Of a stretch of DNA of 64,000 nucleotides, positions 43,483-55,282 are shown piece after piece (position 1 is the stretch's first letter; each line of letters begins with the position of its first letter). Source of the stretch: Alphaproteobacteria bacterium (GTDB lineage: Bacteria > Pseudomonadota > Alphaproteobacteria > SP197). The position numbers and the translations under genes were made by a program. The notes below the pieces were generated by a model. The model ran no database searches and had not been told where the DNA came from. It saw only the letters and a list, made by a program, of their open reading frames with translations. The stretch spans positions 384,001-448,000 of the forward strand of contig OZ219747.1 of NCBI GenBank assembly GCA_964291265.2, written 5' to 3'.

Positions 43483-43571
<89 letters not shown>

Positions 43572-45104: not shown

Positions 45105-45128
45105 TAGGAGTCGATGACACAGCCATCC

Positions 45129-46931
45129 TAGATTCCTTGAATGAAGGCAATGGTGCACAGATGAGCCAAGTTTTCATCACGGACATATTCAGGCGGCAAG
45201 GGTCTGTCCCTCCCAGAGTTTGCTGACCTCGTCATCGAGCGAGTGGAGGATGCGTCCGAGCCTGGATGGCACCTTGTCATCGAAGGCCGCCGCCAGGGCA
45301 GGGCTGAGTGTCCGCCGGTGGATGCGGCAATAGGCAAGAGCGATCCTCTGCCCTCTTGCGTCAGACGATAGCGATGGGATGACGGTATCCTCTCGATGAG
45401 GCCCCGCAGGCGCAGGCGCCGCAGATCATAGGTGGCCTGACGTGAGCCATAGGTATCGGTCGACAGGAGGTCGGCAACGGCCTCTCTCATCTGGCGGTTG
45501 TTGAAGCCCATGGGGAGGAAGACATGCAGCAGGATGGCTGCGAGGACTGCCTGGATGCGTGGATCACCGAAGCGCAGGGCGGATACCCGACGTTCGTCGA
45601 CGACGACAGGTTGATGCAGGGCATCGAAGGTGGCTGCTCCGATCGGACAGTCGTGACTGATGCGTTGGACGTCGAGAAGACGTCGGGTGGCGTCGAAGCC
45701 GACCTCCTTGAGGTCATCGAGGTTGATCAGTCTGCGCTTGATGCCGAAGTCGTACGTGTTGTTGATCACCGTCTCCGTTCGCAGGGCACGGCCTTCCTTG
45801 AAGGACTGCTTGATACGCGAATGCCTGTCATCCACATGCAGCGACGGCTGCACGCCGTCGGTGATGACGCGGGTTCTGAACCGCGAGGTGGTCCGCCGTG
45901 TGATACGGCGGTTGAAGATCAACTGCACATGGTCAGGACGGCCGATGTCGAGGTTCTCGCGAATGATCTCCTCGAACAGGATCCGGCCGTGAAGAGGACG
46001 GTCAAACACCTGTGTGAGCGCACACTCCGCCTGGAGAATCGACAGGTCGTAGCGGATGCCCCTCATCGCGTCCTCGTCGGTGAAGGGATGGGGAAGCCAT
46101 GCCGTCCACTTGCGGAACAGCGCGTCGATCCGTGAGGCATCGATCTCCCCGGCCACGGCCTGCATGATCCGAGGATCGGCACAACTCAGGATGCCGTTGT
46201 CGAGAGCCTCGAAGGCCACCCCGCGCTTGCTCAGCTGACGCTTCAGGTATTCGTGACCATTGAGGCACAGCTTGGCGTTGTACGGGAAGTAGGAACAGAA
46301 CTTGATGAAGCAGGGACCAAAGTCGTCGTCCACGATGTAGATGTACCAGGCATTGACCATCGCCGTGCTGTGAACCAATTCGCAGGACGCCCTGCCCGTC
46401 GCCGGATCAACGCGCTTCTGCGTACGCAGGACACGGGCCTTCTCCTGGGCCTTGCCGACGTAAAGGACACCTTCACCGCCAGACCACAGGCGAAGATACT
46501 TCTGTGTCACATCATCCTTGCGCTCCCCCTTCCTGAAGCTGACAAGGTCGACACCCTGATCCCGGGCAAACCGCTCCAGGCGCGTCACAAAGCGCCGCGT
46601 CATCGGCGCCATCAGAGCCGATGACGGAACAGGATTGCCCCGAACCTCCCGAAAGAACCAGGCCGCGCCACCACCCGTCTGCAGCATTGGCACATAGGCG
46701 TTGAGATAAAGCCGGTCCAGACACTCAAGCTCCAGCGTCACGTGATTCTCAAGGACCTCGCCAACAGACCGTGCTATCGTCATCTTCTGGCCTCCGAACG
46801 ATGGGTTCCCCACATGGTTATCATAACCAACCCTCGGGCTGTATCAGGCGGGTCACCGCAGAGCGGAACAGCGGGCGGAGTCCTTTCCCTTCCGCGACGT
46901 CTCTCGTCGGTCTGAGGCATAGCCTCATTAG
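45129..46931 (-). mobile_element. Putative TIR-less single-gene mobile element bounded by TAG/CTA
   Basis: TAG at 45129-31 and 46929-31; the rejoined empty site is the palindrome GCCATCCTAGGAAAGGC; hairpin-rich 5' leader; no terminal inverted repeats seen. Confidence 0.6.
45189..46783 (-). pseudogene. Approx. 530-aa unclassified transposase/Rep-like protein with C-terminal wHTH, frameshifted near 45348
   Basis: ECLDRLYLNAYVP, LNGHEYL, SRIKQSFKEGRALRTETVIN, TYDLRRLRLRGLIERIP..HRYRLT; the alternative frame ends RIALAYCRIHRR...QTLAA* at 45189. Confidence 0.7.
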
Positions 46932-47055: not shown

Positions 47056-48027
47056 ATGGCCAGATTCAGAGGAACCGACGGCGACGACTGGCTCTACGGC
47101 AACTTGCTCTTCGGCGGCGCTGGCAACGACTGGCTCTTTGGCGGCGACGGCGACGACAAGCTTCGGGGCGGTGCTGGCAACGACATGATCTACGGCTTAA
47201 ACGGCAACGACAGGCTCCACGGCGGCGACGGCCACGACAGGCTCCACGGCGGCGACGGCGACGACGGGCTCCACGGCGGCGCTGGCCTCGACAGGCTCCA
47301 CGGCGACGCTGGCCACGACAGGCTCTACGGCCACGCTGGCGACGACTGGCTGGAAGGCGGAGCCGGCAACGACATGCTCTACGGCGGAGCCGGCAACGAC
47401 TGGCTCTTTGGCGGCGACGGCGACGACAAGCTTCGGGGCGGTGCTGGCAACGACAGGCTCGACGGCTTAAACGGCAACGACAGGCTCTCTGGCGGCGCTG
47501 GCAACGACTGCCTCTCTGGTGGCGCTGGCAACGACATACTCTACGGCGGAGCCGACAACGACTGCCTCTTTGGCGGCAACGGCGACGACAGGCTCTACGG
47601 CGGCGCTGGCGACGACAGCCTCTACGGCGACGGCGGCAACGACTGGCTCTCTGGCCGCGACGGTGGCGACACGCTCCGGGGCGACGCTGGCGACGACACG
47701 CTCCGGGGTGGCACTGGCGACGACACGCTCTATGGCGACGCTGGCGACGACACGCTCTACGGCGGGAAGGGCGACGACACGCTCCGGGGCGGCGCGGGCA
47801 ACGACCGCTTTTTCTTCGATGCCGAAAGCGACCATGACACCATTGCCGACTTCGGGAACGGCAGCGATACCATCGTGTTCAAACAGAAGTTGGCCTACGC
47901 CGACATCATCATCAAGGACCGCGACGCCGGGACCGTGATTACCGGGCCTAATGATGACTGGAGCATCACGCTTGAAGGCGTGACAGCGGCCGAGCTTACC
48001 GAAAGCGACTTTGAGTTTCTGGGATAG
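47056..48027 (+). CDS. RTX (hemolysin-type Ca-binding) repeat protein with T1SS-type C-terminus
   Basis: About 27 consecutive GGxGxDxLx nonapeptides, then DTIADF...SITLEGVTAAELTESDFEF. Confidence 0.93.
   Translation: MARFRGTDGDDWLYGNLLFGGAGNDWLFGGDGDDKLRGGAGNDMIYGLNGNDRLHGGDGHDRLHGGDGDDGLHGGAGLDRLHGDAGHDRLYGHAGDDWLEGGAGNDMLYGGAGNDWLFGGDGDDKLRGGAGNDRLDGLNGNDRLSGGAGNDCLSGGAGNDILYGGADNDCLFGGNGDDRLYGGAGDDSLYGDGGNDWLSGRDGGDTLRGDAGDDTLRGGTGDDTLYGDAGDDTLYGGKGDDTLRGGAGNDRFFFDAESDHDTIADFGNGSDTIVFKQKLAYADIIIKDRDAGTVITGPNDDWSITLEGVTAAELTESDFEFLG
47083..47810 (+). repeat. 27-bp coding tandem repeat array
   Basis: GGCGGCGCTGGCAACGAC-type units; near-identical blocks at about 47120-47215 and 47390-47485 (270 bp apart). 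Confidence 0.9.
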
Positions 48028-50276: not shown

Positions 50277-52651
50277 CTTTCAACCAGACACTGTTGAATC
50301 CATCTTTTTCAGCATATCGAGTTCCTGCAGTTTCCGCATATTTCGGTGATGTTCGACGAAGGTGAGGAGGATTTCGTATCCCTGCCAGAGTTTCTCAGTC
50401 CCCGGCAGGGGTTGACGTTTTCTGGGAATGAAGCCCGCCAGGCGTGCGACGTCGACGGCGAAGGCTGCGATGGTCGGTTCGGGATCGGGAGGTCCACGCG
50501 GCGTGCGCTGTCGGCTGACCTTATAGATGTTCAGGACCGTGATCTCGTCGCGGTGGACGATGTGGCTTGCCGGGGTGTCTGGTGCCGAGCGTGCGAGGCG
50601 CTCGACGGTCATGACGCGGCATGCGGTGATGGCGTCGAAGGCCAGACACTTCCTCAGATCGTCGGCCTGGTTGAGGCGCCGGTCCTTGATCCGGGTGCCG
50701 ACCTTCAGGGCCTTGAAGTACTCTTCGATCCACCATCGCCTCTCGTAGAAGGAGACGGTCTTGAGGGCATCGTCTGCGGTGACGTCGCCTTCGGTGGTGA
50801 GCAGCATCCAGTCGAGAGGATCGCGGCCTGGCGGTGGGGCGGGTTCCGTGACCCGCACGGCCATCATGGAGAGCGGCGGCGTTGCCTGAGGCTTCTTGTC
50901 CGGCGGAGCCAGGTCGACCCTTGCCGCACGGACTTCGAGGCGTACGCCCTTGCGCTCCTTGCGACGACGCGGCCCTCCGCAGGCTGCGATGTCGATCTGC
51001 TTCGTTGCGATGCACGGCTCGTCCGCCATGTAGTCCCAAAGGTCCCGGCAGGCGCCCGTTGCGGTGACCACGCGGCGCCGTGTCGAGCGCCTGACGCGCA
51101 CCAGCAGACCGGCCTCGTGCTCCGTGCTCCGGGCCAGCAGGTCCCAGATGTCGCCTTCACGGTCACAGATCACCAACACCCTTGTCGAAGGACAGGCAGC
51201 GGCCAGTTCCACGGCCTTGTCGTACCCGTCGAGCCAGCGCCGGCTCTCCTTGTCGTCTGGCTCGTCCTTCTTCTGATCCGGCTTGAGACGGAAGTCGGCG
51301 TCGAGATGGAACAGGCCGAGGGATGAGCCGCCTTCGCTGAAGGCAACCCCGGCATGGGCCGCCATGCCAAGGGCGCCCGAGCCGCCGCCGCCGATGTCAA
51401 CAAGACCCTTGGTCGCCTCCAAGCCGTTGTCATTCAAGAACGTCGTGTCCTGGATGGCAAGAATCAGGCGCTGCGAACGGCAGCGTTCCACCATCGCTTC
51501 CTGGTGCCCCTCAAGGATATGCTCCATCGTCACCCTCGGATTCGACAACAAGCGGTAGGCCGCCTTCTGCTCCGCCTCGCCGGGGAAGATCACCGGCAGG
51601 ATCGCGCCGGGACGATCGTTCCACGCCCGGCCCATGGTGACAAGGCGCTCGCGGATGCGCACGTCACTGTGGCTGCTGCGGGCGTACTCCCTCATCGCCC
51701 AGTCGGTCCTGTCATCACCGACAAGGGGCGCCGCCTGGCCCATGACACGCTCAGGCTCCCGGCACAGCACGGCGCGCCAGTCAGGCGTCAGGGGCTTCAT
51801 CCATACGGACCGCTGCACGCCCGGGCCGGTGGCCCCGGGAGGTCGACCCGAGGTCATCTCCTCACAGCGCTCCCAGCCCGCCGCCCGGTAGCTCACGCCG
51901 CTGTGCTCGGGACCCACATACGTGTACGCCAGAACCGGCTTCACCCCGTACTTCTCGTGCCAGTCCGTAGCCAGACGCCGGCAGGCACAGGCCAGGGCAT
52001 GGGAGGCCAACTCCTTCACATCCACCGATGGAAGAATCAGGAAGCGATCATTGTTGACGATCTCGCCGAGGTGGGCGACACGGGCTCCCTGGGACCAGCC
52101 GATGAAGTCGTCGCGCGCCTTCTGGTGCCAACTCGCCGCACCAAACACCAGGCCGCCGAGGCGACCGTGGCGCGACGAGGTGATCCAGTAGCTCACCCGG
52201 GCTCCGGGTGCGCACGCCTCGCCTTCGGGATGCCAGGTCGCCATCATCGAACGGGCCAGGCGCTTGTCCTCGCCCTCGCCCACAGGCTCCAAGGTGACCT
52301 CTCCAAGGTCCTCCAGAGAACAGGCGAGGAGCTTGTCGGGATAGTCCCGCTCAAGGATGTCGGCGCCGGTGCCGAAGGCATCAGGCCTTGGTGCAGGAAG
52401 GGCGATGTCGAGCGACGCAGCAAGGTCAGGCAGGGCCGCACGCGCCGAGGCAAGACAGAGCTCGCCCTTCGCGTTGCGCCACTCCTCGCGCTCGCACAAT
52501 CCCCGCGCCAGAGACGAGCGTGTGCTGCCCTCGGCAGCCGACGCCGCCTTCAGCCAGTCAACCGTCGTCGCAGACAGATGTCGAAAGCCGATCCTCATGG
52601 GCCACTATGTAAGGCCTCATGAACGTCGAGTCAAGCCTGTCCCGTTGAAAG
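50277..52651 (-). mobile_element. IS4-family element A (2375 bp)
   Basis: TIRs CTTTCAACCAGACA / CTTTCAACGGGACA; 9-bp TSD GACACACAC at 50268-76 and 52652-60. Confidence 0.93.
50280..52598 (-). CDS. IS4/IS50-type transposase with N-terminal DUF4338 (DruA-like) domain
   Basis: ARDDFIGW, VNNDRFLILP, GVSYRAAGW; Tn5-like DNA-binding WAMREY; DDE motifs AIQDTT, CDREGD, YERRWWIEEYFKALK. Confidence 0.9.
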   Translation of the reverse strand: MRIGFRHLSATTVDWLKAASAAEGSTRSSLARGLCEREEWRNAKGELCLASARAALPDLAASLDIALPAPRPDAFGTGADILERDYPDKLLACSLEDLGEVTLEPVGEGEDKRLARSMMATWHPEGEACAPGARVSYWITSSRHGRLGGLVFGAASWHQKARDDFIGWSQGARVAHLGEIVNNDRFLILPSVDVKELASHALACACRRLATDWHEKYGVKPVLAYTYVGPEHSGVSYRAAGWERCEEMTSGRPPGATGPGVQRSVWMKPLTPDWRAVLCREPERVMGQAAPLVGDDRTDWAMREYARSSHSDVRIRERLVTMGRAWNDRPGAILPVIFPGEAEQKAAYRLLSNPRVTMEHILEGHQEAMVERCRSQRLILAIQDTTFLNDNGLEATKGLVDIGGGGSGALGMAAHAGVAFSEGGSSLGLFHLDADFRLKPDQKKDEPDDKESRRWLDGYDKAVELAAACPSTRVLVICDREGDIWDLLARSTEHEAGLLVRVRRSTRRRVVTATGACRDLWDYMADEPCIATKQIDIAACGGPRRRKERKGVRLEVRAARVDLAPPDKKPQATPPLSMMAVRVTEPAPPPGRDPLDWMLLTTEGDVTADDALKTVSFYERRWWIEEYFKALKVGTRIKDRRLNQADDLRKCLAFDAITACRVMTVERLARSAPDTPASHIVHRDEITVLNIYKVSRQRTPRGPPDPEPTIAAFAVDVARLAGFIPRKRQPLPGTEKLWQGYEILLTFVEHHRNMRKLQELDMLKKMDSTVSG

Positions 52652-52924: not shown

Positions 52925-55282
52925 TCATAAATCGTGCAGGGCGCGGTCATGTCCTTCCGACGTCGGATCCAGATCGAGGGCCTCGAGCAGGCATTCATAG
53001 GCCAGGGCAGCGGTGGCCAGTCGCGGATAGCCATGCCACATCGTCTGGTTGCCCGGCGCCGGATCATGCTTGCGGTCCAGATACCCGCCGAGGATCGCCA
53101 CCAGCTTCACCGCCGCCCCCAGCGTGTCGGGCGGGTCCAGCCGGTATCGCCGGGCATAGTCGCCGAGGAAGCGGAGTTCCAGGTCCGAGAACAGGCAGTC
53201 GGGCTTCATCGTCGGCACATCCCGCCCGAGCAGGGTCATCAGGGCAAGACGCCAGGCGATCACGGCGTGGATGGTGATCTGCCGTTCCAGGCGGCAGGCC
53301 TTGCGCGTCGCCAGGTGCTCCACCCGGCAGCCGGACTTCAGCACCCGGAACCAGCATTCGATCCGCCAGCGCAGCGCGTACCAGCCGACGATCTCCTGGG
53401 CCGCTTCGGCGTGGTCCACAGGAAGGTCGGTCAACAGGAACCATTCCACCGGAGCTTCCCCGGCCGGCGGGGCCGTCTCGAGGAGATGCAGCGCGGTCAC
53501 GGCCACGGGCGCGGCATCGGGGCAGCCAGCGGTCGCCGGCAGCGTGGTCGACAACCAGCGCAACTCCAGCACCGCGTTCCGCCGGGCAGTGCGGCCGGGC
53601 TGCTTCTTGCGCCCCGAGGACTTCGGCCGGGCCGTCAGGCGGGGTATGTCGATCTGCATGGTGCCGCGGCAGGCAGACGTACGTAGTCGGGTGAACAGCT
53701 TCGCAGCCCCGCGCTTGAGGACCCGGTCATGTCGAGCCCGCACCAGCATCGACAGACGGCGATGCTGCCGGCACCGGTCGAACAGTTCGAAGAAGTCCGC
53801 TTCCCGGTCCATCACGCACACGACCTTCACCCCGGTCGTCCGGGCCGCGAGGTCCGCGATGTCGTCGAGACCGTCGAGCCAGCGCTGCGACTTGCGCCGG
53901 GACATCTCGACATCCTCGCCCGAACCGGTCTTTGCCCGGGGGCGGGGAGGAGCGTCGAAGGCAAGACGCGCCACCCCCAGCGGCAGGCCTTCGCCGCTGA
54001 CAACGTAGCTGGCGTGCAGGTGCAGGCCCAGGGTCTGCGAGGCCGTCTGGTTCGTGCCGATGATGCCCAGACCGTCGCAGCCCGGACGGGTCGCGAAGTT
54101 CAGGTCCGTCCCGTCCTGAATGCACAACGCCACCCGCTGGCCGCACATCCGCTGCACCGTTCGTTGACGGTGCGGCGCCAGGATGTTCGCCGGGGTCACC
54201 GCCGACGTCTCCGGCTGATCCAGGAACCGATAATAGGCCCGGACACCGGCAGGATCCGGGCGCGCCAGACCGCTGTAGGACGACATCGGACTCTCTCCCT
54301 GTCTTCGTGCAATCTCCACCAGGCGCGCACTCAGACGCCGGTCGCCGATCGGCGCTCCCCCGAACTCGTGGTGCGCCCACGCCGAGGCGTCCAGACCCTC
54401 CCCCGGGGACAGGGCCGGCATCGGCTCCGCCACCCCCAGCTTGTGCCGCCAGTCCCGGTCCAGAACGTACATGTACACGGCCTTGACGCTCTCGGCCATC
54501 TCGCGCGCGCGGTCCTGACGGCCTCGGCCCCGGGTGAACCCCACGAGCTGCCAGTTCGCCGCCCGCAGGCTCGCACCGTCGCGCGTCGGGTCGACATAGG
54601 TCTCGACCAGCCATGGCAGGAACCCGTAGCGCTGCGCAACATCGGCGCCCAGGCGAGACAGGCACATCGACAGCGTCTTCGACGCAAGGTTCGCAACCGG
54701 CACCCGGATCAGAAACCGGCTCATCGACAGCACCCGGTGTCGCTCCGCACGACGCCGGTCGGCATCCCAGCCGATCCAGGCATCCCGATCCGCCACCTTC
54801 AGCGCCGCTGCGGCAAAGCCGAAACCGCCGAGACAGCCGTGAGCGGAATCCACCAGATAGCGCAGCTGATGACCGGCCAGAATGGGAGCGCCGAGAAAGT
54901 GCTCCCGCGCCATCAGTTCGTTCCAGAGCGCCCGTTCGGCATCCGTGCGCACCAGCAGGATCCGCAGACCCTGGATCGCCGCCACGCTCGCCGGCACATC
55001 ACGCGGCTTCTCCACCGCCTCGCCGAGCCGGCGGGGCGTTGCCCGACGCCGCTGACCGGAGGGCTCCGGCAAGCCCTCGATCCTGCCCTGCGATGCCAGC
55101 TGCTTCAGGGCCACGACACAGCTCGATACCCGCTCGCGTCCCCGTGCGTCCCGCAGGCCGAAGTGCCGGCACACTTCCAGCGCCAGGCGGTTTTGACTAC
55201 TATCGCCGCTCTCGGTGACGATCGACTGCAGGCGATCGAGCTGGTCCTCGAGGACGCGTTTGATCGGAATGTGTGCTTCCAT
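52925..55282 (-). CDS. IS4/IS50-type transposase with N-terminal DUF4338 (DruA-like) domain
   Basis: EHFLG...QLRYL, DRDAWIGW, SRFLIR..NLAS, ETYVDP..GASLRAANW; CIQDGTDL, MDREADF, YALRWRIECWFRVLKSG. Confidence 0.9.
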   Translation of the reverse strand: MEAHIPIKRVLEDQLDRLQSIVTESGDSSQNRLALEVCRHFGLRDARGRERVSSCVVALKQLASQGRIEGLPEPSGQRRRATPRRLGEAVEKPRDVPASVAAIQGLRILLVRTDAERALWNELMAREHFLGAPILAGHQLRYLVDSAHGCLGGFGFAAAALKVADRDAWIGWDADRRRAERHRVLSMSRFLIRVPVANLASKTLSMCLSRLGADVAQRYGFLPWLVETYVDPTRDGASLRAANWQLVGFTRGRGRQDRAREMAESVKAVYMYVLDRDWRHKLGVAEPMPALSPGEGLDASAWAHHEFGGAPIGDRRLSARLVEIARRQGESPMSSYSGLARPDPAGVRAYYRFLDQPETSAVTPANILAPHRQRTVQRMCGQRVALCIQDGTDLNFATRPGCDGLGIIGTNQTASQTLGLHLHASYVVSGEGLPLGVARLAFDAPPRPRAKTGSGEDVEMSRRKSQRWLDGLDDIADLAARTTGVKVVCVMDREADFFELFDRCRQHRRLSMLVRARHDRVLKRGAAKLFTRLRTSACRGTMQIDIPRLTARPKSSGRKKQPGRTARRNAVLELRWLSTTLPATAGCPDAAPVAVTALHLLETAPPAGEAPVEWFLLTDLPVDHAEAAQEIVGWYALRWRIECWFRVLKSGCRVEHLATRKACRLERQITIHAVIAWRLALMTLLGRDVPTMKPDCLFSDLELRFLGDYARRYRLDPPDTLGAAVKLVAILGGYLDRKHDPAPGNQTMWHGYPRLATAALAYECLLEALDLDPTSEGHDRALHDL

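Follow-up and report, generated by a model that had tools for sequence, protein, structure and literature searches.

A dead copy of a CTAG-targeting insertion sequence and the predicted Rep_trans-like fold of its putative transposase

Described systems and the local element

IS630 and IS5 are DDE elements that prefer CTAG, and IS200/IS605 elements encode a short Y1 HUH TnpA and have hairpins at both ends. The nuclease lineage of the Rep_trans and MOBT proteins (PF02486: RepD/RepDE, 4CWC; RepSTK1, 4CIJ; RelSt3; NicK) has so far been known from plasmid and phage replication and from conjugation. Its members display a TBP-like fold, and passages of PMC5714925 place their conserved motif residues on β-strands, including the Tyr, which is helical in HUH enzymes. 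According to excerpts of PMC13181058, IS91 uses a tetranucleotide target without duplication and has a terIS palindrome adjoining a variant tetramer, and its bottom strand is active. The transposases of the IS91 family (IS91, IS801, IS1294) are HUH (Y2) enzymes described as structurally unrelated to Rep_trans. RepSNJ2, an initiator of archaeal virus and plasmid replication without evidence of transposition, comprises a TBP-fold domain (E25, D207, Y283, E303) followed by a MarR-like winged helix, and the link of this Rep-Arvir group (DUF7845, PF25227) to Rep_trans is visible only by structure, as excerpts of PMC13107129 present it.

The window, a stretch of 64,000 nt from an alphaproteobacterial genome of 4.83 Mb (64.7% GC, two contigs), contains a dead copy of a 1.8-kb CTAG-targeting insertion sequence, which carries a Tyr to Ser replacement and a frameshift. 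The following features were assigned.

45128..46931, minus strand: whole element including both terminal tetramers, delimited by other genomic copies with different flanks and by the family census
46928..46931, minus strand: gene-upstream tetramer CTAA, inherited with the element (CTAA, CTAG, CCAG or CTAC depending on lineage) and likely the terminator-side cleavage site (putative)
46913..46927, minus strand: subterminal hairpin with a 5-bp core, GAGGC-nnn-GCCTC; conserved, with a compensatory GGGGC/GCCCC form in relatives
46820..46847, minus strand: weak sigma-70-like promoter match (9/12) 5' of the gene, a consensus match only
45189..46783, minus strand: putative transposase pseudogene (531 aa in intact relatives)
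46715..46717, minus strand: Asp23, candidate metal ligand (motif N' equivalent)
46025..46027, minus strand: Glu253 of QxE, candidate metal ligand (motif I equivalent)
45803..45805, minus strand: codon 327, Ser here and Tyr in the family; candidate catalytic nucleophile
45773..45775, minus strand: Glu337 of RxE, candidate metal ligand (motif IV equivalent)
45353..45355, minus strand: frameshift at the end of the winged helix, common to two other genomic copies
45132..45174, minus strand: gene-downstream end motif (AAACTTGACTCA-like ... TCAAG-N4), likely the origin-side binding region (putative)
45128..45131, no strand assigned: target tetramer CTAG at the gene-downstream junction (53/53 junctions, five genomes)

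The element measures 1804 nt with both tetramers, giving a net insert of 1800 nt. On the minus strand, which is the coding strand, it starts with CTAAT at 46931 and ends with CTAG at 45128. No terminal inverted repeat was listed between the two ends, which have only CTA in common. The original prediction, which had bounded the element by TAG on both sides 1800 nt apart (at 45129 and 46929), had described the same start, end and lack of terminal inverted repeats. It had also read the Tyr codon as TCC (45805-45803; TAC in an intact relative) and reported the protein motif IKQSFKEGRALRTE, which is present in the window gene; the frameshift that it located at about 45348 lies a few bases away, at about 45353-45355. 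The boundaries are not due to chance, because other copies stop at the same bases with different flanks and because CTAG is rare in this genome (849 occurrences against ~3619 expected from a Markov model, a four-fold depletion). An empty allele of the window's own site was not found, and a comparison with 30 relatives gave no real match to its right flank.

Copies, junctions and target site

This genome also contains two further copies in which neither end is damaged, two older relics that retain two ends, and several fragments, all of them decayed and with flanks that differ among them. In six segments covering the catalytic motif, Tyr is replaced by Ser in four and Glu337 by Gln in five. Ser327 copies occur at four places, and every one of them has other lesions as well. 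Since the Tyr to Ser change is common to four of the six segments, trans-mobilisation or gene conversion is needed, and the mosaic pattern of lesions suggests the same two processes. Within its own genus the element is patchy, matching 11 of 23 genomes, and G007 holds two intact copies. Genomes G001-G005 contain 14, 17, 15, 6 and 8 matches, respectively, and their full copies mostly present 0-4 differences from the group consensus, the exceptions being another subtype, in G002, and a copy in G004 with 24 differences. Among the species genomes scanned, 599 of 606 candidate stretches, in about a third of the collection, were confirmed. The 80 stretches kept come from Proteobacteria, Acidobacteriota, Actinomycetota, Chloroflexota, Planctomycetota and others, and, with 50% clustering, the phmmer hits at E ≤ 0.001 amount to 10,903 representatives, among them many fragments. 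Plasmid records match in 27 cases, and the 25 listed are annotated as hypothetical, uncharacterised, ArsR regulator or nothing. The element is a several-copy, multi-phylum mobile insertion-sequence family, in agreement with the IS-like nature proposed from the window; a single-copy syntenic gene is ruled out by the multiple copies and by the patchy presence in the genus.

The ends are fixed by multiple copies and the insert size by an empty site, comparisons that the original prediction had called for. At one site in G003 an orthologous empty allele, found in contigs of 6 of 8 runs, has four bases between the flanks; as this allele reads CTGG in a diverged strain, it fixes the size of the insert and not the target word. 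A census of 53 junctions in G001-G005, made without requiring CTAG, revealed CTAG at the gene-downstream junction of every copy, as expected if homologues end at CTA/TAG. The upstream tetramer is lineage-specific and abuts the conserved hairpin: CTAA in 10 copies and CTAG in one for G001, CTAG in 17 for G002, CTAA in 13 for G003 and in 6 for G004, and CCAG in 7 with one ACAG for G005. The commonest form is CTAA (68 of 116 motif hits). The 5-bp upstream hairpin is perfectly paired in 109 of 112 ends, seven of them through a change on both sides, related ends not being independent. The downstream end folds no better than shuffled sequences; across phyla, conservation is highest at the upstream end. 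When the end patterns were applied strictly, 10 of 74 upstream ends and 18 of 76 downstream ones escaped them, several of these misses being pattern artefacts or later insertions.

A long palindrome had been proposed as the target. This was rejected: 89 reconstructed sites present no excess symmetry (1.87 versus 1.91 paired positions of 8, p=0.65), and the 8-bp palindrome of the window is therefore incidental. Joining the window's flanks does give the predicted site, as claimed for excision, but only its CTAG matters. What the element targets is the tetramer itself, and the flanks are biased asymmetrically: of 81 sites, 53 have A at -4 and 45 have G at +2, compared with 95 and 138, respectively, of 452 control CTAG sites; these counts leave out G005 and L001. 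The ends of IS630-type elements supply CTAG sites that the element uses.

Several loci depart from the common layout. A distant subfamily (26-27% identity) displays CTAC and a different hairpin upstream and CTAG downstream; one member (KAYTKGERVLRFE; L193 4140-5990, NZ_OY970457.1) lies directly behind a typical member, and this plasmid carries two copies of the subfamily that are 96.6% alike. The only differences between L061 and its siblings are the two bases on either side of the CTA core (element positions 4 and 1825), as if the junction bases had been swapped with a target. At about 4626 in L040 a copy stops 26 nt early at an internal CTA and reads CTAG, possibly an aberrant cut, the remainder being absent from the locus. 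In L036, L057 and L068 an inverted second upstream-end motif is located ~60 nt inside the element, within its first 90 nt.

In mini-elements of about 80-390 nt, nothing but the two ends is retained. A joined-ends pattern matched in 34 stretches of metagenome sequence, and the arrays among them comprise as many as four units. In head-to-tail arrays, the 124-nt units of L209 are 99% alike and the four units of L213 95-98% alike; across arrays, some neighbours are 95-99% alike and others 56-88%. Head-to-tail junctions read CTAG in 34 cases and CTAA in 3. From the likeness of the units and this ratio, the arrays may stem from read-through or from insertion into the end of a relative, the ratio fitting insertion at least as well. 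Neither the 7 contig sets, in which rare forms are dropped, nor one Hi-C run of thin coverage gave a listed circle junction.

Predicted fold and candidate active site

Sequence searches of curated Pfam and NCBIfam returned no match, PF02486 included, for the window protein or for 22 homologues, and PF25227 was not among the Pfam hits at E ≤ 0.5. PHROGs gave nothing beyond weak winged-helix hits, the PDB sequence search gave nothing, the ESM Atlas gave only unnamed clusters and Rfam only a tRNA 1.6 kb away. An hhalign comparison with five Rep_trans-like proteins was negative (E 0.57 with a thin profile). No DDE, Y1 or DEDD domain was hit in Pfam or NCBIfam, whereas the neighbouring IS630 and IS4 proteins hit at once.

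AF2 models reached pLDDT values of 91 and 93, with 91 for the intact homologue P0002. In the model, a TBP/Rep_trans-like domain (residues ~15-378) is followed by a MarR-type winged helix (~405-480) and by C-terminal helices. A full-length Foldseek search ranked an aromatase/cyclase first and RepSTK1 second (E 4e-3); MarR-type winged helices were also found, and the HUH relaxase TrwC appeared weakly at rank 28 (E 0.04). With residues 1-378, the top PDB hit was RepSTK1 (4CIJ; E 9.3e-4, TM 0.22/0.28), all four chains of this entry being within the top 10. A VIA comparison against 48,161 chains placed TBP folds in all of its top 7 rows, the next fold having a Z of 6.3. They include archaeal TBP (Z of 9.2), RepDE (Z of 7.3 and rmsd of 4.8 over 177 aligned residues) and RepSTK1 (Z of 7.2 and rmsd of 4.5 over 185 aligned residues); TBP scores as high as or above the two initiators, and the tool grades a Z of about 7 as common. 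No DDE transposase, HUH transposase, DEDD enzyme, serine recombinase or tyrosine recombinase was present among the VIA rows listed. Hits in a viral structure library included TATA-box-binding proteins and an inovirus G2P replication protein. The catalytic domain is thus predicted, at a moderate level of match, to adopt a TBP/Rep_trans-like fold, a shared fold that shows no function, and the winged helix is predicted to bind the element ends.

The original prediction had named both a Rep_trans-like protein and a C-terminal winged helix, and the model contains each of them, the former with moderate scores tied with those of TBP. Of the search that it suggested, the fold half gave RepSTK1 as best hit for residues 1-378, while the sequence half found no match to PF02486. 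A DDE/RNase H or known transposase structure, the outcome it had held against itself, was not recovered among the VIA rows listed, the best fold matches being TBP-like.

Among full-length homologues, Tyr327 and Arg335 are conserved in 66 of 66, Lys329, Glu337 and Glu253 in 65 of 66 and Asp23 in 63 of 66, the other three being gaps. The proposed invariance of Tyr in YxK...RxE is therefore observed. Two other tyrosines, Tyr147 and Tyr165, are each conserved in 65 of 66. All six residues lie on predicted β-strands, Glu253 on the strand extending from 246 to 260. Tyr327 is the predicted nucleophile, and Asp23, Glu253 and Glu337 are the predicted metal ligands. The Tyr-x-Lys on a β-strand followed by Arg-x-Glu (in the family, the window copy having Ser), the three candidate acidic ligands in the same order and the CTA at the processed site all resemble Rep_trans/MOBT, whose motifs, in the parts of PMC5714925 and PMC6499999 that describe them, fit the family residues with the exception of RxD. 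At the place of motif I, 65 of 66 homologues have QxE and not RxD, and the equivalence of this place to motif I is putative. Asp23 would fall on RepDE D46 if the range that ends at model residue 16 and RepDE residue 39 continued ungapped. Further differences from Rep_trans/MOBT are the lack of a profile match, a Tyr-to-Glu spacing of only 10 residues against 23 in RepDE, a large insertion between the first two acids, and the carrier, which is a one-gene chromosomal multi-copy element and not a replicon or ICE. The order D/E...D/E...Y...E and the MarR winged helix are similar to Rep-Arvir as excerpts of PMC13107129 describe it; RepSNJ2 serves replication, and its profile was not hit here.

Transposition mechanism and neighbouring elements

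The element resembles IS630/IS5, IS200/IS605 and IS110 in being of insertion-sequence size, with one gene and a short target. It differs from these groups and from IS4 by its lack of terminal inverted repeats and of DDE, Y1 or DEDD domain hits, and from IS200/IS605 by a 531-aa protein and a downstream end without a hairpin better than shuffles. The layout of the ends is that of the IS91 family (and, by analogy, Helitrons), which likewise has neither terminal inverted repeats nor target duplication. On the non-coding strand, the target CTAG is followed by the origin-like end, the antisense gene, the hairpin and the variant tetramer, which is the arrangement that excerpts of PMC13181058 give for IS91, with the tetranucleotide target gene-downstream and the variant tetramer next to a hairpin upstream. 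The target here is a palindrome, in contrast with IS91, and one-ended transposition, or any clear one-ended capture of flanking DNA, was not seen among the loci fetched. The original prediction had set the element apart from IS91; this applies to the enzyme, for which there is no HUH match, but not to the layout of the ends. The element thus appears IS91-like in its working without being a member, and Rep_trans-like by predicted fold while failing the profile test.

Single-strand, tyrosine-linked transfer through a circle, an IS91-like route with an unrelated enzyme, is the reading that we moderately favour. Single-strand transfer is supported because the lineages retain upstream tetramers of their own and the downstream tetramer is CTAG throughout, without mixing; a staggered double-strand overlap would be expected to yield mixed tetramers. 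For this route we infer both tyrosine catalysis and circles. The enzyme would nick the non-coding strand after the target CTAG (origin, gene-downstream), host replication would displace the nicked strand, a second cut just past the hairpin (terminus, gene-upstream) would release a single-stranded circle, and this would be joined into a new CTAG without duplication. The non-coding strand is slightly preferred over the coding strand as the active one; orientation relative to GC skew gave a null result (27 of 68 positive, p=0.11).

The register of the cut can be approached in G005, because a rare repeat, an IS630-type mini-element, has 6 of the 8 copies at its ends. Free ends of this repeat read CTAG in 10 cases, CCAG in 2 and otherwise in 8, and occupied ends read CCAG in 4 and CTAG in none, plus one with a base missing (Fisher p=0.008 for CTAG:CCAG, 10:2 free and 0:4 occupied). 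Two occupied repeats carry a TA duplication on the far side, so these two sites were CTAG before insertion. The second base of the upstream tetramer thus came with the element, which puts the coding-strand junction at ^CTAG or C^TAG and not at CT^AG. In this one CCAG lineage, the sequences therefore appear to favour a cut at ^CTAG or C^TAG over a pT181-like CT^A, and the CT^AAT register of the original prediction is disfavoured. A CCAG-targeting variant is the alternative; CCAG is common, and such a variant would not explain the clustering at IS630-type ends.

That same lineage bears on a rival with the same tyrosine enzyme, in which the nick falls in the coding strand at CT^A, the register of pT181 and ICE origins, and the hairpin end is the origin. 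In its favour, ...TCTAA... is formed where the ends are joined, and excerpts of PMC9371924 give CT'AA as the nick site conserved in Rep_trans/MOBT; the upstream end is also the best conserved, and CTAA its commonest tetramer. This reading, however, needs G005 to target the very common CCAG, yet most of its copies sit at IS630-type ends that are mostly CTAG. It also has to accommodate a tetramer beside the hairpin (CTAR outside), in contrast with the MOBT/Rep_trans nick within the hairpin loop that the same excerpts describe, and we regard it as unlikely. A dimer of the same fold that cuts both strands, with conservative exchange through a short core and a double-stranded circle that is cut out and pasted in (an IS110-like outcome), is likewise not a likely explanation. 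It would suit the palindromic CTAG, the dimeric state given for Rep_trans proteins in parts of PMC6499999, the exact 4-nt empty site and L061, with just two bases changed beside the CTA core, but there is no sequence relationship between the two ends, the target is flanked asymmetrically and G005 junctions never mix CCAG and CTAG.

Metal-dependent strand transfer by the acidic residues without a tyrosine link, DDE-like and with a short CTA duplication, the fold being the same or mis-predicted, would draw on the several invariant acids, on the 3-nt CTA repeat that flanks most copies and on the four places occupied by Ser327 copies. We consider it improbable, given that terminal inverted repeats and a DDE family hit are lacking while the IS630 and IS4 neighbours hit at once, that the TBP-like model is confident, that the CCAG lineage has no CTA duplication and that every Ser327 copy has other lesions. 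Least probable is that the protein acts only as a replication or nicking initiator and that a host recombinase integrates the element, as in some filamentous phages. Its closest folds are indeed initiators and not transposases, but the four-base target, the scattered sites and the many phyla argue against this reading, as do the absence of attachment homology and of a second gene, the 0 matches of the end motif in IMG/VR and the ends-only mini-elements of 81-170 nt, which spread too.

The predicted fold is like that of plasmid rolling-circle initiators and not like a known transposase, and a new enzyme class is therefore likely. Quite probably, recruitment turned a TBP-fold Rep_trans nuclease lineage into a transposase that acts alone and has converged on single-strand transposition in the style of IS91 and Helitrons; it drives a very large unannotated insertion-sequence family with its own mini-elements, entering CTAG without duplication and using less than ~100 nt of ends. 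In the open-access literature, no paper describing the family was found. If the recruitment did take place, a catalytic class would be added to the few transposase chemistries, and a second rolling-circle nuclease fold would, like HUH, have given rise to transposons. The role of the family in genome change has gone unseen because its members, though abundant, are annotated as hypothetical protein. With one protein, two short ends and a four-base target, the system could provide a compact, duplication-free tool for DNA insertion.

The window region is a cluster of insertion sequences. On the left, a tRNA (43483-43568) is followed by an IS630 element with a split reading frame, which extends to 45107 and stops at another CTAG, leaving 21 nt to the element. 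To the right lies a gene (47056-48027) of 27-nt glycine/aspartate repeats, which presumably resemble RTX-type calcium-binding nonapeptide repeats. Two IS4-family transposases (50280-52598 and 52925-55282, minus strand) each contain an N-terminal DruA-like domain (PF14236 above cut-off), and each fusion has several near-identical full-length copies in this genome. Other elements are found within or against family copies. At L005 1350-2845 and in L022, an element that we take from its motifs to be IS110-like is inserted at the same base of the upstream hairpin of two family copies at different sites, and it either targets the conserved end or moved with the family element. In the genome of the window (G000), an element that we assume to be IS1380-like interrupts one copy at TTAG (C2 1369055-1370845), and the end of an element of the same kind abuts the upstream junction of another copy, again at TTAG (C2 249847).
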